Shown here in pieces: positions 6,565 to 14,927 of a DNA stretch of 64,000 bases. The DNA comes from Alphaproteobacteria bacterium (GTDB lineage: Bacteria > Pseudomonadota > Alphaproteobacteria > MPNO01). Each line of letters begins with the position of its first letter. The first letter of the stretch is position 1. Both the position numbers and the translations under genes were made by a program. Below the pieces are notes generated by a model. That model saw only the letters and a list, made by a program, of their open reading frames with translations, was not told where the DNA came from and searched no databases. The stretch spans positions 672,001 to 736,000 of the forward strand of contig OZ219865.1 in assembly GCA_964291675.2 (NCBI GenBank), read 5' to 3'.

Positions 6565-7170
6565 CTATCCGCCGCGCGCCCGGGAGAGCGGCTTGGCCCC
6601 CCGGAAGCCCAGCCTGGGCCCTTGCCGGTCGGGGCGGTGGAGCGCGTCCACGCGCTGCATCGAGGCCCAGGCCCGGTCGCGTGCGGCATAGTAGTCGGCG
6701 TTGGCGTCGATCATCCATCCGGCCTCTTCGGCGTCGATCCCGCGCAGCACCCGGGCCGGAACGCCGGCGGCGATGGTCCGTTCCGGGACCTCGAACTCGG
6801 CGCGGACGAAGGCGAGCGCAGCCACGATCGCCTGGGCGCCGACCACCGCCCCGTCCATCACCACCGCGTTCATGCCGATCAGCGCCCGGTCGCCCACCGA
6901 GCAGCCGTGCAGCACCGCGCCATGGCCGACCGAGACATCGGCGCCCACCACCGTCTCTCCGCCGGCGAAGCAGTGGACCGTGCAGTTGTCCTGGATGTTG
7001 GAGCCCTCGCCCAGCCGGATCTGGCCGAAATCGCCCCGGAGACTCGCCGAGGGCGCGATATAGCAGCCCGGCCCGACGATCACGTCGCCGATCAGGACCG
7101 CCGTCTCATGGACATAGGCCGTGGGGTGGACGACGGGGATCACCCCGTCGATGGCATAGACCCTGGGCAT
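6565..7170 (-). CDS. paaY: PaaY/CaiE-like gamma-carbonic anhydrase family protein
   Basis: Hexapeptide repeats, ASLRGDFG, NIQDNCTVH, GHGAVLHGC. Confidence 0.8.
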   Translation of the reverse strand: MPRVYAIDGVIPVVHPTAYVHETAVLIGDVIVGPGCYIAPSASLRGDFGQIRLGEGSNIQDNCTVHCFAGGETVVGADVSVGHGAVLHGCSVGDRALIGMNAVVMDGAVVGAQAIVAALAFVRAEFEVPERTIAAGVPARVLRGIDAEEAGWMIDANADYYAARDRAWASMQRVDALHRPDRQGPRLGFRGAKPLSRARGG

Positions 7171-7208
7171 TCAGACGTGTTGATGCAACGGGTACAAACG
7201 TGGGTACA
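7171..7208. other. att junction (paaY side): 9-bp core plus arm-type sites
   Basis: TCAGACGTG (displaced iscA end CAC GTC TGA) then GGGTACA at 7190 and 7202 (12-bp period). Confidence 0.8.
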
Positions 7209-7402
7209 TCAGCAATTCCGCGAGTTGGGCATTCAGCTATTCGGCGCCAAAGGCACGCGAGCATTCAGGGTTTTGGAGCGTCTTCCGAGCGCAGCAAAGC
7301 ACAGTGCCGATCACGCCGCAACCGAGCCCGAGCCGGGCCGCCTGGTGTCCTGATGCGGACCCGCCGAGCCGCCGGGGCGATAGGCATTTTGAACGCGCGG
7401 CA

Positions 7403-7888
7403 TCAGCGGGCAGCGGTGGGCGCTCGATATCGACAATCGAGCAAGTCACAACATCCCGACGCCAGTTTTTCGACGCCACTCGGCGGCATTGTCCAGCCTG
7501 TCATCCCGCGTAGCGCGATTTCGGCGGTTCGGTATATCGCCCGTCGCGGACACTCTTCGGCCTTCACCCCATCGACGGGCAGCGCGGGCTTGTGGCTGGG
7601 TGTCGTCCCTCCGCCGCGCGGTGCTGACGGCGTGCCGACGTTCGGATCGAAAAGCGCGTAGCCCGTCGCGAACGTGTAGCCGCGCCAGATGTTGACGTGA
7701 AGGACGCCGCACCATCGCGGCTCGCCCGCGTCCGCCTTCGGCACGCATCGTATCGACTTCAACACGCCGCGCCTGGCCGCCTGGTGGGCCGGAGTCTCGT
7801 CGCGCGCGATCCTATAGTCCGCGCCGAAGAACTCGCGAAGTTCCAGCCGTGCCGCTTCGGCTGCCCGTTCCAATCGCGCGTTGGCCAT
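7403..7888 (-). CDS. Hypothetical protein (satellite)
   Basis: ATG preceded by AAGGACTGAGGA RBS; no recognisable motif; 3' half less certain. Confidence 0.5.
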   Translation of the reverse strand: MANARLERAAEAARLELREFFGADYRIARDETPAHQAARRGVLKSIRCVPKADAGEPRWCGVLHVNIWRGYTFATGYALFDPNVGTPSAPRGGGTTPSHKPALPVDGVKAEECPRRAIYRTAEIALRGMTGWTMPPSGVEKLASGCCDLLDCRYRAPTAAR

Positions 7889-8142
7889 CGTCCTCAGTCC
7901 TTTGCGTTGTGTCCGAGCGTTGCTGTCGAGATCGTCGCGCGGGGCGCGCTTTTCAAATGCAAATTCGCAGCGTGTTGCAGCGCCAATTGTTGATGCGATG
8001 AATTGTTGATCAGTCACCCAACCCGGGCCTCTTTCCGAGGCTCGCAGAAAAAATTGCACTGGGCCATGCGATGCTGGAACCGCGGCCGAGGCGGCGCGGG
8101 TCCCCTTTCCGGCTGCGGCGCCGGGCTCGCGCGCGTCGGCCA

Positions 8143-8206
8143 GCGGAGATCGCGATGGGCGGAGATCGCGATGGGCGGAGATCGAGCCGAGCGGAGAACG
8201 AATGAG
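8143..8206. repeat. Four 16-bp-period tandem repeats GCGGAGA(T/A)CG, candidate iterons
   Basis: Units start at 8143, 8159, 8175, 8191; adjacent AT-rich tract ~8220-8320. Confidence 0.7.
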
Positions 8207-8317
8207 ACGCCGCGCCGATCTCTCTTTCATTGGGGGTACTCACTACTACCTCCTATACCAATACCCACTTTCATTGAAAGTATAGATAGACCCTCTCATT
8301 CTCTCGCGACAAGACTA

Positions 8318-8848
8318 TCAGCGCAGCGGCCACGGCTCCGCGGCAAAGCCCACACTGGCCGGGACGCGCGTATACCATTCGCCCCATGCATCGGCCGCGC
8401 GCTCTTTGGCGACTGGTTCGGGCGGCTCGATGCCGTGAAGCGCAACGACTTGCGCGGCGATGCGCTGCCCGTCGATGTCGGTCACGCCGCCAACGCCCTT
8501 CGCGATATCCGCGAGCTGGACGAATTCGCCCGCCAGATTTCGCAACATGCCGTCCGCTTGCCGCGCATGTCGGCGCCAAGCGTCATCTACAGCCCAGGGA
8601 TTGACCGTTTCATCGCGCGCGCCGTCCGGGCGCATCGCGACAATGCCATCGGCGAACATGCGCAACAGGACGCGCCGCACTTCTCTATGGTCGCGCTCGC
8701 CCGTCGTTTCGACGATCCACGGCGTAGCAACGCCAACGTCCGGTGCTTCCGCGCTCGCAAGCGCCAACGCTACGCCCGTTCGCACTCGGCCTGTTCGTGC
8801 TATTGGATCGGCGACAATCGGCCGCCATAGTGTCGCGCGTCGCGCCAT
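8318..8848 (-). CDS. Hypothetical protein (satellite)
   Basis: ATG with GAGGGGAG RBS just downstream of the previous gene; protein-like composition. Confidence 0.6.
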   Translation of the reverse strand: MARRATLWRPIVADPIARTGRVRTGVALALASAEAPDVGVATPWIVETTGERDHREVRRVLLRMFADGIVAMRPDGARDETVNPWAVDDAWRRHARQADGMLRNLAGEFVQLADIAKGVGGVTDIDGQRIAAQVVALHGIEPPEPVAKERAADAWGEWYTRVPASVGFAAEPWPLR

Positions 8849-8862
8849 AGCCGGTCTCCCCC

Positions 8863-9162
8863 TCAACGCTTGGTTCGGTCGATCCGCACAATCGCCCCCG
8901 CCGCTTCAAGCCGAGCGAACAAACGGTCGATCATCGCCCGCCGCCCGCGGTCCCGCGCAACCTGGCGCGTCAGCCAAAGCAAGTCGAGCCACGCCGCGGC
9001 GTCAGCTTGGTCGCCGTGTTCGTTGATATGCCGGATGGCAGCGATGAACCTGTCGACCATCTTGCGTCGTTTGAGCCGGGCGAGCTTCATGGCAGCCCGC
9101 TGGATTTCAGCGGCAGTCGGCTGCTCGCCCGTCGCGTCGCAATAGCTCCATTGGTCAGGCAT
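8863..9162 (-). CDS. Hypothetical helical protein (satellite)
   Basis: MPDQWSY...; AAGGGG RBS; alternative in-frame start at 9276. Confidence 0.6.
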   Translation of the reverse strand: MPDQWSYCDATGEQPTAAEIQRAAMKLARLKRRKMVDRFIAAIRHINEHGDQADAAAWLDLLWLTRQVARDRGRRAMIDRLFARLEAAGAIVRIDRTKR

Positions 9163-9284
9163 CAGACCGCCCCTTGTGGACGCCCAGGGAGCCCGTACAG
9201 CGCCATAGCGGTATTCTCGGCTACCCGATGCACCCCCGCCCCTCGCATGGACGCCGTACGCGCTCCGCAGCGCCATCGTTTCGC

Positions 9285-9608
9285 CTACGCCTCGATGCCG
9301 AGCGCCCGCATTGCGTCGCGCCAGCGTTTCGGCACCGACTTCCGAGGAGCCCCGCCGCCATCGAGGAACAGCCCGACGCGCTCGACGGTGTGCGGGCCGT
9401 CCGGCAAGTCGTCGGCCTCGATCCAGCGCCACGCATTCCCGCGCTGGATCGCAACGCCGAGGACGGTCCGACGATCCGGGCCTTCGTATCCGCAGACGAC
9501 CGCCGAGCGCCCGCGGACGAGATGGGCGGCGACGAACTCGGCCTCGCCTTGAGCCCGCGCACGGTGCGCCCGCGTCCGCCGTCTGGCCGCTTTCCTGTCG
9601 CCGCTCAT
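9285..9608 (-). CDS. Hypothetical protein (satellite)
   Basis: ATGA overlap with the portal-like gene stop. Confidence 0.65.
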   Translation of the reverse strand: MSGDRKAARRRTRAHRARAQGEAEFVAAHLVRGRSAVVCGYEGPDRRTVLGVAIQRGNAWRWIEADDLPDGPHTVERVGLFLDGGGAPRKSVPKRWRDAMRALGIEA

Positions 9609-10594
9609 TGGTCAAGTCCCGCGAGCCGCGCCGCGTCCTCGTTCGAAAACCCCGCCTGAACCAGCCGGTTCGCCGCCTGCGACCGCAGCGCCGCAGCGCG
9701 GGCAAGGTCGAGATGGCTTGCCGGTATCCACGCGTCGCGGTTGAGCCGGATTTCGGTTTCGAGCTTGGCGCTCGCTTCGACCTCGACCATGGACGCCAGC
9801 GGGTTGAACGTCCGCACGATTGCGAGCCGCCACGCCGCGGGCCCGCTGTCTCGGCCCGTCAATGGCTGCAACAGTCCGGTGATGCCGAACGCAGCCTCGA
9901 TGTCGTTGCGGACTTGCTCCCGCAGCGCCACGAGGCCCGCGCTCGGCTCGGGTCCGTAGTGCTGGCCGTGCTCGGCGCCTGGCGGCATGACTACCAGTCC
10001 GCTTCTCGCGAGCGCCGCGCCGAACGTCGCGGCGATCTGGTCGCGAACTTCCTTCCCGGCGCGCGCCATCTGTTCGCCCATGTTGATCGCATGGCCGGGC
10101 GGGATGGATGCCTCCGTTGCCGCCGCAGCGTCCACCACGACAGCGAGCGACGCGGCGCTATCGCCAGCGCCGATCGGAGCCCCGCCCGCGAGGACCAGAT
10201 GGACAACGCCGCCGTCCTCGGTGTCATGCTTCGCCGTGTTGCCGTCCGGCAGCGTGACGGAGCCCGTCCACTGGTCGCCCTTGCGCGTCGCGGCGTAGGG
10301 CAAGAGCGTTGCGGCCTCGCCTTCAAGCATGATGGCGAGCGTCGCCTTGCCGCGAAGCCCGAGTTGCCGTCCGGCCCAGTAGAGGACTTCGCCGGTCAAC
10401 GGAGCACCCGGCGTCGCGGCGGCCAGCGCCCAGCCCCATGTCCGGACGGCCGCGCCGATCAGCGTGACTTGCTCATGGCCCGGCAGCGATCCGCCGTCGA
10501 GCGTGAGCGCCCCGCCGGCCGCCAAGTCGGTTTCGGATTTCGTCCGCGTGACCCATGGCACGGCCGCGAGTAGCGCATTGAGACCCCAGCGCAT
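9605..10594 (-). CDS. Divergent phage portal-like protein
   Basis: Position after protease (TGATG coupling); portal-like segments VVH, LVALREQVRNDIEAAFGI..LL, TFNPLASMVEVEASAKL, LVQAGFSNEDAARLAGL. Confidence 0.65.
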   Translation of the reverse strand: MRWGLNALLAAVPWVTRTKSETDLAAGGALTLDGGSLPGHEQVTLIGAAVRTWGWALAAATPGAPLTGEVLYWAGRQLGLRGKATLAIMLEGEAATLLPYAATRKGDQWTGSVTLPDGNTAKHDTEDGGVVHLVLAGGAPIGAGDSAASLAVVVDAAAATEASIPPGHAINMGEQMARAGKEVRDQIAATFGAALARSGLVVMPPGAEHGQHYGPEPSAGLVALREQVRNDIEAAFGITGLLQPLTGRDSGPAAWRLAIVRTFNPLASMVEVEASAKLETEIRLNRDAWIPASHLDLARAAALRSQAANRLVQAGFSNEDAARLAGLDQ

Positions 10595-11082
10595 CAGTAG
10601 AGCCACGGCGACGGCGCCGTGTCCTCGTCGGCCGAGCGCGCCGCGACGGTCGCGTCCGGGTAGGCGCCGGTGTCGACGACCGCGACGCCGAACAGCTCGG
10701 CCTTCTCGATCACGCGGACCCCCGCCTCGCGGCGTTCGGACAACGCGCGAAACTCGACGGACAACCCGCGCAATATTCCCGCCTCGACCAGCGCAATCGT
10801 GTCGTCGGCGTCGCGCGTGTTGGGCAAGGTCGCCTCTATCGCGAGCGAGGCCGCACTGTCGCGCAATTCGAGCCCGCCGCCGCCCGTCCGCGCCAGTGGT
10901 CGCGCACGATCATGGTGGGCGTTCAGGATCACGTCGCCTTTCGGAATGAGGCTGCCGGGCTCGAAGCGTTCCCGCTGGCCGTTCTTGACGCCGCCGGCGC
11001 CGTATTTCATCGCCACGCCCGTCAGCTTGCGGCCGTCGAGCGTGACGCCATCGGCGTATCGCCGTTCGATTGTCTGTGTCAT
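10594..11082 (-). CDS. HK97-family prohead (maturation) protease
   Basis: LTGVAMKYG, ERFEPGSL, LNAHHD..RPLART, LPNTRDADD, GILRGLSVEF, VVDTGAYP. Confidence 0.9.
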   Translation of the reverse strand: MTQTIERRYADGVTLDGRKLTGVAMKYGAGGVKNGQRERFEPGSLIPKGDVILNAHHDRARPLARTGGGGLELRDSAASLAIEATLPNTRDADDTIALVEAGILRGLSVEFRALSERREAGVRVIEKAELFGVAVVDTGAYPDATVAARSADEDTAPSPWLY

Positions 11083-11115
11083 GTCGAATTTCCCGTTTCG
11101 TATGGACCTGGGGAG

Positions 11116-11185
11116 GCCGCAGAGCGTCCATCGTCGAGGCGCAAGTGTCTCGGTAGCCCGCGAAACGACCATGGCGCTCTGCGGC
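11116..11185 (-). promoter_or_regulatory. Long stem-loop between capsid and protease genes
   Basis: GCCGCAGAGCGTCCATCGTCG pairs with CGACCATGGCGCTCTGCGGC. Confidence 0.6.
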
Positions 11186-11210
11186 GTTCCCTGTGGCTGC
11201 TGCGCGGCCG

Positions 11211-12407
11211 CTACTGGTGCTGGGCTTGGACCCTGACGAAGCCGTCGCTACGCAACACGTCCCATGCCGCCAGCATGATCGCCGTGAGCTTGACCTCGCC
11301 CGTGCCGACCGCCGAAACGCGGTCCTCGACCAGCTCGACGTTCTCCCACACGGCCGCCGCGAAATCCTGGTTTCCACCCTTCCGAATGAGAACGTCCTGC
11401 TTGTTCGCCGCCGTGTCCGGAATGTTCGCCGACACGCGGAGCCCGCCGACCAGCGCCCGCACGGCCGCGACGGACGAAGCGTCCGAATTGTTGGTGCGGT
11501 AGAGCGCCGCCCAATCCGTCAACGTGTCGGCGCCCACCATGATCCGGAGCGCCGCCTCGTCGGCCGCATAGGTCCCGTCGACGTTCGGATAGACGAACCG
11601 CGAAAAGACGGTCGCGAACGTGTCGGCCGCATTGGCTGCCGTGCGGTTCACGTCGGCGACGATCTGCGCCACGACTTGCGCATCGAAGGCAGCGCCCAGC
11701 GCCTCGCGGAGCGCTTCGCGGAGACCGGTATCGAGGCCGGCGAACCGCGCCGCGTCCGTGCGCCGATAGCGGAAACCGGCCTGGACGCGCTCGGGCGGCA
11801 GCGAGTAGAGCGCGATCACGCCGTTCGTCTCGGTCGCGTCGGTGCTATCGGTGAACGGTCCCTTGACGCTCGGATCGCTGGTCAGTACGGGATAGCCCGC
11901 CGTCCCGACTTCGACGATTTCGGGCGCGATGCCGAAGAACGCCGCATCGCCGGTCGCGAACGGGCCATAGATCAACGGACGCTCGGCGACGGATACGCTG
12001 GCAGGAACCGTGGTTGCCGCGCGCGTCTCGACGGCCAGCGCGCGGATGCTGAACTGACCGTCGGGGATGTTCCGCTCGGCGTTGTATTCGGCGGTCGGGC
12101 CGTCGAGGCTTCGACGCTCGCCCGTCACCATTGCGGCGACGGCGCCAAGGTCATACCCCGCCACCAGCGCGTCGGCCTCGCGCTGTTCGGCGGAACGCTG
12201 GTCGTTGGGGAGCTTGTCCAGCTCGCCGTCGATCCGGTCCAGCTCGCCGTTGATGGCCACGTGGCGATCCTCGATTTCGCGCTGGCGCTCAGGCTTGGGA
12301 GCGTCGGCCCGCGCCAGCTCGATGCGCTCGTTCTGGAGCGACCGCTGTTCGCGCTCCAGCTTCTTGCGCTCCATCTTCAGGCGATGGCGCTGTTGTGCGG
12401 TTGTCAT
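11211..12407 (-). CDS. Major capsid protein, HK97-like fold with N-terminal coiled-coil (delta/scaffold) domain
   Basis: ~400 aa; charged coiled-coil N-terminus; C-terminal W.NVELVED...GEVKLTA...DVLR..GF pattern; adjacent to prohead protease. Confidence 0.8.
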   Translation of the reverse strand: MTTAQQRHRLKMERKKLEREQRSLQNERIELARADAPKPERQREIEDRHVAINGELDRIDGELDKLPNDQRSAEQREADALVAGYDLGAVAAMVTGERRSLDGPTAEYNAERNIPDGQFSIRALAVETRAATTVPASVSVAERPLIYGPFATGDAAFFGIAPEIVEVGTAGYPVLTSDPSVKGPFTDSTDATETNGVIALYSLPPERVQAGFRYRRTDAARFAGLDTGLREALREALGAAFDAQVVAQIVADVNRTAANAADTFATVFSRFVYPNVDGTYAADEAALRIMVGADTLTDWAALYRTNNSDASSVAAVRALVGGLRVSANIPDTAANKQDVLIRKGGNQDFAAAVWENVELVEDRVSAVGTGEVKLTAIMLAAWDVLRSDGFVRVQAQHQ

Positions 12408-12417
12408 GCGTAGTCCC

Positions 12418-12514
12418 TTCATCTGGCGGTCGCTGCGGCCACGGCCACGGGCTCGGCCGAATAGACTTCGCCCGCGTGGTGGCGCCGCATGTTGCCGCAG
12501 CGACCAGAGATGAA
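12418..12514 (-). promoter_or_regulatory. Long stem-loop in capsid gene leader
   Basis: TTCATCTGGCGGTCGCTGCGGC pairs with GCCGCAGCGACCAGAGATGAA, with nested inner stems. Confidence 0.6.
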
Positions 12515-12601
12515 AGAACGCGACGCCACCCGTCCGCGAGTGGGAGGACGATCCCGCCGCAGTCGCTTCGAGTGGTGCTATTCGTTGAGCGGGGGGATTG
12601 C

Positions 12602-13174
12602 TCAGATACCGAGAGACGCTATCGCGTCGCGCGCGATGTCTCGGTCAGCGTGCCAAATGCCCTCAACGGTCTTGTAGTTGAGACCATACTTGATCGCCAC
12701 GTTGTCACAGTGGCTTTCCCCGGCGATGGCACGCCCGCCCCGGTTCTTGTCAACGCGGCGTGTTGTGCGGAGGTTGGGATTTGATCGCTGGCTACGCACG
12801 ATGTCCTTCAGGATTTCGAGGTCGCGGTCCAGCTTCGGCGCTTGACCGGGCGGCCGCTTCGCGCCGTCCAGTCGCTCCAAAATCCACTCGCGGAACTGGC
12901 GCGGCAGCGGTGCTATGTCCTGCCGCAACAGCCAAGGCGTCAATGCCGCGAGTTGATCCCAAGCGAGACGGTGCTTGCGCGCCTTGACAACGAGCCCCGC
13001 GACGCGCCCGTTGAACAACAGAGGTTGCTCGCGCCCGAGTGTTTCCAGCACGCCAGCGTGGAGCTCCGCCCATTGGGCCGGCGATCGGAGGACCTCGGAG
13101 GCAATCCCCGCGAACGCGAAATCAACCTCGTCCGGATCGTCGGGCATGTAGTAGCTTGTAGGCGTATCGGTCAC
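12602..13174 (-). CDS. Hypothetical protein, possible C-terminal HTH regulator
   Basis: GTG start with GGAGG RBS; C-terminal CDNVAIKYGLNYKTVEGIW resembles a helix-turn-helix. Confidence 0.6.
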   Translation of the reverse strand: MTDTPTSYYMPDDPDEVDFAFAGIASEVLRSPAQWAELHAGVLETLGREQPLLFNGRVAGLVVKARKHRLAWDQLAALTPWLLRQDIAPLPRQFREWILERLDGAKRPPGQAPKLDRDLEILKDIVRSQRSNPNLRTTRRVDKNRGGRAIAGESHCDNVAIKYGLNYKTVEGIWHADRDIARDAIASLGI

Positions 13175-13253
13175 GGCGGGCCTCCGAGCGGCGGCGCAAC
13201 ATTGAGCGCTCCGCAAGCTGCTGTCTCCTGCAAATCGCAGCCCCTCGCAGCCG

Positions 13254-14513
13254 TCAGCCGGTCAGGAACTCCGCCCAGTCCGCCATGACTTCGCGGCGGC
13301 GCTCCAGCATGGTCGTCCGCATGTAGGCTTGCACCGTAGCGTTGCCGTTGGCGTGAGCGAGACAGGCTTCGGCGACCTCGAACGCGACGCCGGTCTCGGC
13401 CGCCCAATCGCGAAACGTCGAACGCCATCCGTGCGGAACGGCCTCGTCGGTGACGGCTCGCAGCGCACCCACCATGTACGATGTCGGTCTCCCACGCGCT
13501 CCGATCCGCGGGAACAGCAAGCGTCCGCCGTCGAGGCGCGGCGCCACGATGGACACGGCCGCGTCCGACAGCGGCGCGACGTGTTCCCGCCCCGTCTTCA
13601 TGCGTTCGCCGGGGATCGTCCACCGGAGCGTCTTCAAATCGAATTCGGCTTGCTCGGCCTTCGCCGCTTCGATGGGCCGAACGGCGGTCAGCGCCTGCAG
13701 GCGTACAGCCGCCCCGGCCTCGGTATCCGGCAGCGCGGCAAACACGGCCGGCGCATCCTCCCCGCGCAACGCGGCGTGATGCTTTTCGGCGGGCAGCTTC
13801 GGCAACAGCTTTGCGAGCGCCCGCCCCGTCGCCACGTTGTCCTCAAGGTGTTCGGCCGCAATCGCCCAGTCCAGTACGCTGCAAATATTGCTCCGGAGCT
13901 GGATCGCGGTCCCCCGCCGTCCTTCGCGATGGTGCGGCTCCAACACGGCCGCCACGTCGCGGCGCTTGATCGCGTCAACAGGTATGTTCGCCAGTGGCGC
14001 CGCCCAGCGTTTCAGACGGGCGGCGGCCTCTTTGCGCGGGCGCTCCTTCCGTCCCGAGATGGCCAGCCATTCATCCGCCGCTTCGGCGAAGGTCGGAGCA
14101 TCGCCGGGGCGCGACGGCTCGGGATCGTCCGCCTCGAAATTGACGCCCGCCGGCGTATGAGCGTTGAGGATCGCCGCGACGATCCGCTCCTTGTCGCTGA
14201 GGTCCATACGCTCCGCGGCCGTCATCGCCGCGTCTACGGCGGGCCGCGCTCGGGCAAGGCCTCGCTCAATCTGGGCGGCTTGGTACGTCGCCGCCGCCTG
14301 TTCGCGCGCGGCGTCAAGATCGTCGAGCTTGCCGAGGCTGCGATCTACGCGCTTGCCGTCGCGGTCGGGATAGCGAAGGCGGAGATACCAAGTGCGACTT
14401 CCCGCCTTCGTCTTGCGAACCACGAGCTGGAGCCCGTTCGCGTCATCCTGATCGGCGCCGTCCCAGTAGGTGCCAGGGGGCGCGGTTTCGAGCGCTTCGG
14501 CTGTGAATTTCAT
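13254..14513 (-). CDS. P4-like tyrosine integrase with N-terminal arm-binding domain
   Basis: GLQLVV...SRTWYLR arm domain; catalytic R (TAVRPIE), K (MKTG), HGWR, LAH, Y (AYMR) all present. Confidence 0.95.
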   Translation of the reverse strand: MKFTAEALETAPPGTYWDGADQDDANGLQLVVRKTKAGSRTWYLRLRYPDRDGKRVDRSLGKLDDLDAAREQAAATYQAAQIERGLARARPAVDAAMTAAERMDLSDKERIVAAILNAHTPAGVNFEADDPEPSRPGDAPTFAEAADEWLAISGRKERPRKEAAARLKRWAAPLANIPVDAIKRRDVAAVLEPHHREGRRGTAIQLRSNICSVLDWAIAAEHLEDNVATGRALAKLLPKLPAEKHHAALRGEDAPAVFAALPDTEAGAAVRLQALTAVRPIEAAKAEQAEFDLKTLRWTIPGERMKTGREHVAPLSDAAVSIVAPRLDGGRLLFPRIGARGRPTSYMVGALRAVTDEAVPHGWRSTFRDWAAETGVAFEVAEACLAHANGNATVQAYMRTTMLERRREVMADWAEFLTG

Positions 14514-14564
14514 GGCCGCATCTCCGCTTCGCGTTGTCGCTGCGGAGACAGTAGCGGGGAGGCG

Positions 14565-14600
14565 TGTACCCAGTCAAGTACCCAAAGACCATCAGACGTG
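14565..14600. other. att junction (iscA side): arm-type sites plus 9-bp core
   Basis: GTACCC at 14566 and 14578 (12-bp period, inverted relative to the other end); TCAGACGTG at 14592-14600. Confidence 0.8.
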
Positions 14601-14927
14601 GAAGGATTCGCCGCAGCCGCAGCGCCCCTTCTCGTTCGGATTGTTGAACACGAAGCCGGATTGCAGCTTGTCCTCGACATAGTCCATCTCGGTGCCGACC
14701 AGGAACATCAGCGCCCTGCCGTCGATCAGCACGGTGACCCCCTTGTCCTCGACGATCTCGTCGAGCGGGTTCCTTTCGGCGGCGAACTCCATCTGGTAGG
14801 CCATGCCCGAGCAGCCGCCGGTGCGGACGCCGATGCGGAGCCCGACGGCCGGCTCATCGCGCCGCGCCATCAGGTGCCGAACGCGGTCGGCGGCGGCATC
14901 GGTCATGGTCATCGCCTGCTTGTTCAT
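14592..14927 (-). CDS. iscA: Iron-sulfur cluster assembly accessory protein (IscA/SufA)
   Basis: GGCSG and CGCGESF motifs. Confidence 0.95.
   Translation of the reverse strand: MNKQAMTMTDAAADRVRHLMARRDEPAVGLRIGVRTGGCSGMAYQMEFAAERNPLDEIVEDKGVTVLIDGRALMFLVGTEMDYVEDKLQSGFVFNNPNEKGRCGCGESFHV

Follow-up and report, generated by a model that had tools for sequence, protein, structure and literature searches.

Phage-inducible chromosomal islands of the capsid-forming kind (cfPICIs), such as EcCIEDL933, are described as satellites that combine an integrase with an HK97 capsid, a prohead protease and a portal of their own and that have no tail or lysis genes (PMC10085698, PMC10690885). The first of these papers lists 11 core components, with terL, adaptor and connector as the distinguishing ones, and a cfPICI call by SatelliteFinder needs at least nine of the 11 (PMC10085698). 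P4-like satellites and the classical phage-inducible chromosomal islands, among them the pathogenicity islands of Staphylococcus aureus (SaPIs), are presented in the same two papers as integrase-bearing elements that use the terminase of the helper, directly in the case of cos-type SaPIs and P4, and that borrow the capsid protein and portal of the helper and redirect capsid size. Known capsid-forming satellites have their own terminase, and the known terminase-borrowers also borrow capsid and portal. Here we present the analysis of an integrated element of exactly 7,421 bp with a shell, a protease and a portal of its own and no recognisable terminase, located in a window of 64,000 nucleotides (G000:C1:672001-736000) of a 4.8-Mb, two-contig, high-GC alphaproteobacterial genome (G000).

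As in the cfPICIs of PMC10085698 and PMC10690885, integrase, HK97 capsid protein, prohead protease and portal are present and tail and lysis genes are missing; unlike them, the element has no TerL, HNH, AlpA/MerR or pri-rep and no recognised TerS, adaptor or connector, is smaller (7.4 kb), and has a capsid and a portal that the Pfam capsid and portal models do not match. Since at most four of the 11 core components listed there are found (integrase, capsid, protease and portal), a cfPICI call by SatelliteFinder is not expected, and as annotated the element falls outside the cfPICI definition of PMC10085698, for want of TerL and several more of the core genes. An integrase and a presumed use of helper terminase link it with P4-like satellites and classical islands, from which it differs by a shell and portal of its own. 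The 'twilight-zone' mini HK97-fold genomes (Aguilar et al. 2026, PMC13669383), of about 8.75 kb and ranging from about 5 to 11.6 kb, resemble it in having an HK97-fold capsid gene and an integrase and no terminase, and a satellite lifestyle is one explanation proposed for them; they are, however, without portal or tail connector and carry encapsulin-like capsid domains and Rep/RepA, whereas the present element combines a portal with an S78 protease and shows no recognisable Rep. The Streptomyces satellites MulchRoom and MiniFlayer, compared by their description in PMC10690885, share own capsid and portal genes and the lack of an obvious replicase, but have a small and a large terminase and genomes with direct terminal repeats. 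No description of portal-encoding, terminase-less capsid-forming satellites was found in the searched literature under Creative Commons licence, supplements aside.

It is confirmed that the island is real, precisely bounded and intact. It occupies positions 7171-14591 of the window, between an iscA-like gene and a hexapeptide-transferase gene, and is flanked by the direct repeat TCAGACGTG, which is perfect in both att copies and identical to the 3' end of the iscA-like gene. An automated repeat search with a minimum length of 12 missed this repeat of only 9 bp, which was found by reading the ends. A 9-bp repeat by itself is weak evidence for the ends of an element, and the precision is supplied by the empty sites: in all 11 other genomes of the genus the start of the hexapeptide gene directly abuts the stop of the iscA-like gene (...GGGCAT followed at once by TCAGACGTGGAAGG...), and the ends are therefore exact. 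Because the empty sites match both ends, nothing larger than 7.4 kb was ever inserted here. The same element was recovered from two metagenomes of different studies, the copy in X2 having 0 differences over positions 7593-13939.

The reading that we favour, at roughly even confidence, is that the element represents an old, terminase-less branch of a widespread cfPICI-like family, which would make its own procapsid and receive terminase and tails in trans. The element was placed by its tyrosine integrase exactly where the iscA-like gene has its 3' end, and a capsid protein with its own N-terminal scaffold-like domain, an S78 maturation protease and a short portal are encoded in a single co-oriented, partly overlapping series of genes. 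After excision it would, on this reading, make small, portal-bearing procapsids. As TerL, TerS and HNH are not detected, the procapsid would be filled by a terminase supplied in trans; head-completion parts and tails would be taken from a helper, and replication would depend on enzymes of the host or helper, with the orf182 product possibly nucleating it at an array of 16-bp repeats.

The capsid protein has no match among Pfam, PHROG or PDB sequences and none in 72,556 plasmids, and was assigned by structure. Its AlphaFold2 model, made from 39 sequences, reached a pLDDT of 85.3 and a pTM of 0.74, and comparison with the PDB by Foldseek gave 328 matches at E<=0.001, all those listed being HK97-fold capsids or encapsulins (among them M. 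xanthus EncA at 9.9e-10, phage R4C, RcGTA, D3, HK97 prohead II and the mature HK97 head at 9.2e-8). The original prediction had made itself dependent on the 11211-12407 protein modelling as an HK97 fold, which it does. The model begins with long helices (residues 8-99), followed by a mixed domain, and the N-terminal helical or coiled-coil domain of about 100 amino acids (aa) appears in the model like a delta or scaffold domain. The capsid protein has 107 homologues, the nearest being 46-47% identical. The protease is matched by Peptidase_S78 (3.2e-17), phrog_80 (3.2e-23) and TIGR01543 (4.8e-15).

For the portal there is no direct match in Pfam, PHROG or PDB sequences, and a single close homologue is the metagenomic protein P0109 (60% identity). 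The family profile A4, built with the relatives of the locus, finds 21 proteins, 14 of which carry PF04860, and matches PDB entry 9i8c_A at 8.5e-9 and the RcGTA portal at 2e-5. By phmmer the portal is related to that of locus L004 (1.6e-11), which is itself recognised by Pfam Phage_portal (4.4e-9). The predicted trio of capsid, protease and portal-like genes is thus present, as judged by fold, by the S78 match and by the portal profile against the PDB.

The match of the portal profile to the RcGTA portal, that of the capsid model to the RcGTA capsid, and the small HK97-type heads liken the element to gene transfer agents (GTAs). These are, however, not bounded by integrase and att and carry TerL, adaptors and tail genes, whereas the present element is att-bounded and without them. 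Its absence from all 11 congeners means that it is no GTA-like cluster maintained by vertical descent.

The encapsulins among the top Foldseek matches of the capsid raise the question whether the head module is kept for another role, either as decoy procapsids that sink phage terminase in defence or as an encapsulin-like compartment. The lack of packaging genes in the element would suit such a role, as would the defence-like cargo of family islands (a SIR2-like gene in locus L044). We regard this as improbable: a delta-type N-terminal domain together with adjacent genes for S78 protease and portal is a viral assembly set and differs from encapsulin systems, no cargo-like gene and no PADLOC match was found among the six open reading frames (ORFs) scanned (the five small unknowns and one overlapping plus-strand ORF), and integrase and att indicate a mobile element.

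The packaging and replication genes of cfPICIs were searched for in the element individually. No TerL was detected by Pfam or by six-frame searches with the HK97-type and GpA-type TerL of relatives, and the predicted lack of a recognisable terminase stands. None of the small ORFs has a Pfam, PHROG or NCBIfam match to TerS, a diverse group of which one may escape. Pfam revealed neither an HNH nor an AlpA/MerR-type regulator, and the HNH of locus L039 and the AlpA of L039 and L060 find nothing in the element. A primase or helicase is present neither as an ORF nor as a fragment, and fragments of the relatives' alpA, primase, TerL and HNH were not found beyond noise at E<=5. For tail and holin genes there was no Pfam or PHROG match inside the element.

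Relatives were collected by capsid-based locus retrieval, which gave two loci from genome contigs, one viral and two metagenome loci (one being the same record as the viral one), and by a portal-profile scan of species-representative genomes, which gave 31 loci from many phyla; gene content was determined with local hidden Markov models (HMMs) and Pfam checks. Capsid and portal occur together in 24 loci, and 23 are comparable after removal of L003, a 4.1-kb contig; this set was fetched with patterns of the TerL-bearing portal group plus a search of the genus and is not an unbiased sample. As a rule, int is accompanied by small ORFs, TerL, capsid, protease and portal, in this order and in a space of about 9-10 kb; AlpA, an AAA_25 primase or DnaB-type helicase, and HNH are frequent additions. 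An example is L020 (= L008): flanked by host genes and by a tRNA-Lys, this complete island measures about 9.7 kb and carries int, two small ORFs, TerL, capsid, protease and portal. Islands with int, TerL, capsid, protease and portal (loci L039-L068) occur in metagenome-assembled genomes (MAGs) of Acidobacteriota, Spirochaetota, Nitrospinota, Thermodesulfobacteriota, Gemmatimonadota, and Alpha- and Gammaproteobacteria, while the finds in Deinococcota are limited to portal pieces, TerL and an integrase. As AlpA, AAA_25 primase/helicase, TerL and HNH are seen among the relatives L039, L060, L062 and L044, the wider family works like cfPICIs. Regardless of how the lack of a terminase is read, these loci document a compact cfPICI-like family of about 9-10 kb, whose islands are likely mis-called as incomplete prophages.

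A remnant of an ordinary tailed prophage that had lost its tail, lysis, replication and packaging genes would likewise leave a phage-type head trio and an integrase. This origin is very improbable, since the ends are exact against the 11 empty sites, tblastn finds no match of capsid or portal among 50,697 phage records, and a tight run of TerL, capsid and portal, mostly with an integrase in about 9-10 kb, is seen in 20 of the 22 other comparable loci (tail and lysis content lying outside the scan).

Several points weigh against an old terminase-less branch. TerL is present in 21 of the 23 comparable loci, 20 times of HK97 type and once (L060) of GpA type on the other strand; only the present element and L009, from the same-genus genome G015, are without it. 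In L039, from a Rhodospirillales MAG, the order is int, an orf204-family gene, an alpA-like gene, AAA_25 primase/helicase, TerL, HNH and capsid, which is the layout of the present element plus a central block of about 4 kb, as a deletion would give. No head-tail adaptor or connector is recognised in the element. A terminase normally docks on its cognate portal, which makes a portal of its own awkward for an element without terminase. The capsid tree leaves this element, that of G015, the TerL-bearing L004 and P0013 as a polytomy (support 89), and the portal and capsid trees are both quick searches with midpoint roots. Finally, the two terminase-less elements are not independent samples: a single host genus harbours both, and it was a search of this genus that turned up one of them.

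The strongest competitor is a defective deletion derivative, i.e. a full cfPICI-like island that lost its central ~4 kb, being perhaps still capable of excision and integration but no longer of packaging or spread; we consider it appreciably less probable than an even chance, and still a serious candidate. The TerL of relatives usually lies directly upstream of the capsid gene, synteny with L039 extends over both sides of the missing block and includes the orf204-family gene after int, and the spacer at 12423-12601 corresponds in that comparison to the position of alpA, primase, terL and HNH. That helicase/primase, AlpA, TerS, HNH and adaptor are all undetected would also follow from such a loss. 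It is opposed by the lack of pseudogenes, frameshifts or leftover fragments, by the perfect att repeats, and by a post-portal module (orf107, orf99, orf182, the repeats and orf161) that has no counterpart in the TerL-bearing relatives examined. The suggestion of a stand-alone undescribed class cannot be kept, as the capsid and portal relatives sit in cfPICI-like islands with terL. It had been added that close relatives with terL or primase between portal and att would make the element a deletion derivative; relatives with terL do exist, but they are distant (25-47% identity), and their terL lies upstream of the capsid gene and not between portal and att.

An old loss rather than a recent deletion is favoured by the element of G015. 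It measures about 7.6 kb and comprises capsid, protease, portal, four small ORFs, one of which is a head-tail adaptor (phrog_442, 1.9e-11), and an integrase. It is only 36-42% identical to the present element and sits at a different chromosomal site. A quick maximum-likelihood tree of 25 portals unites the present element with P0109 and G015 in one clade (SH-aLRT 99, stem 1.38), separate from all 21 TerL-bearing loci. A distinct portal clade together with a diverged yet intact element in G015 fits one old loss followed by long persistence and would not be predicted by two independent recent deletions.

The distinct terminase-less portal clade hints at a split portal-terminase partnership. If the element is indeed an old terminase-less branch, a shell, protease and portal without a motor would divide the portal-terminase pair between satellite and helper; this would extend how far satellites are known to depend on helpers and open portal-terminase specificity to direct tests. 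The more far-reaching proposal that the clade consists of old, self-sustaining, hyper-dependent satellites, whose portal diverged to dock a foreign terminase, seems to us rather unlikely. Were it true, with the donor being a podovirus-like cluster or a TerL-bearing sister island, the helper of this satellite would itself be a domesticated phage-like element or another satellite.

Both kinds of candidate donor exist in G000, a genome without matches to Pfam Phage_capsid, Phage_portal, TerL_ATPase or tape-measure models. It has two other terminases, one of GpA type in an island on C1 and one of Terminase_6N type in a cluster on C2. The former lies in another cfPICI-like island (C1:591316-601503; loci L002, L015, L023 and L038), which measures about 10.2 kb, precedes the window by some 80 kb and is flanked by a repeat of about 64 bp from the 3' half of tRNA-Lys(ttt). 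It carries an integrase related to that of L020, an S78 protease, the GpA-type TerL, a capsid 29% identical to that of the present element and a 411-aa putative portal-like ORF; reading of the sequences added an AlpA-like ORF and another that phmmer matches (1.2e-05) to the HTH_36/DnaT protein of L004. Within the genus its GpA-type TerL occurs only in G000. The other candidate, G000:C2:3001121-3016246 (L069), is a podovirus-like structural cluster with TerL, portal, holin, capsid, tail and tail-fibre proteins and a host-like GC content at third codon positions (GC3) of 0.94-0.97. The cluster, with its host-like codon usage, is conserved in 10 of the 12 genomes of the genus, and the TerL is kept at 76-84% aa identity in nine of the 11 other genomes, including G015. 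It resembles a phage cluster that has been domesticated or is GTA-like, and is a candidate helper. Either the C1 island or this cluster could in principle be the source of terminase or tails.

The coordinates of the genes and repeats are summarized in Table 1. Nine ORFs, all on the minus strand, are supported by the ORF listing, by their GC3 phase and by a codon model; the latter was trained on the element's four identified genes, which encode the tyrosine integrase, the HK97-fold capsid protein, the S78 prohead protease and the short HK97-type portal; the remaining five are unknowns. All nine are open with coding-type GC3, which amounts to 0.74-0.86 in the element versus 0.90-0.94 in the flanking host genes, and neither the ORF list nor the codon model revealed pseudogenes or frameshifts. 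Protease and portal overlap by 1 nt at stop and start, if the 329-aa start of P0108 is taken for the portal, and portal and orf107 overlap in the sequence ATGA. Apart from integrase, capsid and portal, the longest ORF has 204 aa, and a non-coding gap of 430 bp separates orf182 from orf161. The integrase is matched by Pfam Phage_int_M (6.3e-13), Phage_integrase (1.2e-10) and phrog_1 (7.3e-48). Tyrosine recombinases possess a catalytic set of Arg, His-x-x-Arg and Tyr; in an alignment with six relatives H361, R364 and Y397 are invariant, and the first catalytic Arg (TAVRPIE) is aligned in six of the seven sequences. Most of what the original prediction had read from the letters is therefore recovered: both att ends, now with the empty sites of the congeners, intact catalytic residues of the integrase, nine co-oriented ORFs (orf161 being marginal), translational coupling as seen from the coordinates, no evident frameshifts, and no further large ORF besides integrase, capsid and portal (orf204 probably having 190 aa).

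Table 1. Features of the element and its flanks (positions in the window)
Feature	Position	Strand	Evidence or remark
Hexapeptide-transferase gene	6565-7170	minus	flanking host gene
attL, 9-bp direct repeat TCAGACGTG	7171-7179		left end, right after the start codon of the hexapeptide gene
orf161	7403-7888	minus	coding marginal: GC3 0.76-0.85 in phase, codon model 0.018 per codon
About 4 tandem 16-bp repeats GCGGAGATCGCGATGG	8142-8206		TRF score 84/74
orf182	8318-8866	minus	codon model
orf99	8863-9162	minus	GC3 phase, codon model
orf107	9285-9608	minus	start overlaps portal stop (ATGA); GC3 phase, codon model
Short HK97-type portal, 329-333 aa	9605-10606	minus	family profile
HK97-family prohead serine protease	10594-11082	minus	Pfam/PHROG/TIGR
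Major capsid protein, HK97 fold	11211-12422, likely start 12407	minus	AlphaFold2 and Foldseek
Spacer, 179 bp, inverted repeats	12423-12601		arms 12428-12442 / 12491-12505
orf204	12602-13216, probably 190 aa with start 13174	minus	all-helical, C-terminal helix-turn-helix-like motif
Tyrosine integrase	13254-14513	minus	Pfam, PHROG, catalytic residues
iscA/Fe-S_biosyn gene	14592-14927	minus	flanking host gene
attR, 9-bp direct repeat TCAGACGTG	14592-14600		last codons and stop of the iscA-like gene

The product of orf204 is most likely a regulator, a helix-turn-helix (HTH) protein kept beside int in relatives. An HMMER scan of 1.84 billion representatives gave 31 homologues, which measure 140-244 aa apart from one with 493 aa and share a conserved C-terminal motif GGSACDAV..YK.VE.IW, and a gene of this family adjoins int in L039 (HMM 1.2e-7) and L043 (0.0028). 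The AlphaFold2 model (pLDDT 80) is all-helical and found no clear match by Foldseek (best E 0.93); the best Z score VIA-wide was 7.5, on generic helical repeats, and residues 110-190 gave Z of about 5-6 on small HTH domains. A same-frame tblastn match (E 2.2) had suggested a TerL remnant, which was rejected, orf204 being a stand-alone family with no match among PHROG or PDB sequences.

For the products of orf107, orf99 and orf161 no match came from Pfam, PHROGs, NCBIfam or PADLOC, nor did the Atlas give a usable one for orf161. Weak leads for orf182 are Atlas assignments to PsiA, DnaT and DnaD_N, all below 0.9, and, by BLASTP (E 0.015), a similarity to the HTH_36 portion of an L004 protein that has a DnaT domain. 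A plus-strand ORF at 8003-8830, overlapping orf182, is disfavoured by the codon model, and orf182 was preferred. Just downstream of orf182, phased copies of GCGGAGATCGCGATGG start at 8143, 8159, 8175 and 8191 and are followed by an AT-rich stretch at about 8230-8300; by their arrangement the array and this stretch are a candidate iteron-type origin or operator. The claim that no replicase is encoded stands as far as no primase or helicase was found, and is softened by the array and the DnaT/DnaD/HTH_36-like leads for orf182. A Rfam scan gave nothing at gathering score, a single atpB-like match (23.5 bits versus a cut-off of 37.4) being dismissed, and the 0 sites of a promoter scan and the two of a terminator scan were not above those in shuffled sequence.

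Some further observations were made on the portal, on the metagenomic copies and on the relatives. The closest solved relative of the portal family, PDB 9i8c_A, is a similarly short 'Phage portal protein' of 338 aa, and no paper mentioning the entry 9I8C was found. One contig of X2 with an empty site was considered as a sign of excision and rejected, since 14-15 differences per flank assign it to a related strain, about 9% diverged. The contigs, to which the comparison was confined, showed no circle junction, which is no measure of excision. In metagenome X1 a low-depth contig has 16 differences in 153 bases to the capsid N-terminus (window 12219-12371) and rejoins at about 13250, near the 3' end of the integrase gene, which suggests a variant element with a different spacer region between int and capsid. 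In L044, an island from Vicinamibacterales, a low-GC3 SIR2-like gene (L044:11486-12685, minus strand) lies between the portal module and the integrase and may be defence cargo. The G015 element (at L009 11271-11837) abuts an alpha/beta-hydrolase-like gene, the G000 counterpart of which (C1:590487-591212) adjoins the tRNA-Lys island on its other side; the gene encodes 188 aa in G015 versus 241 aa in G000, and the insertion may have altered its 3' end. L019 (G083:C1:330000-349999) contains an orphan capsid gene and a TerL fragment of the family (9466-10572 and 12638-13210) amid unrelated ORFs; by its gene content this locus is a true relic and illustrates what a decayed copy looks like.

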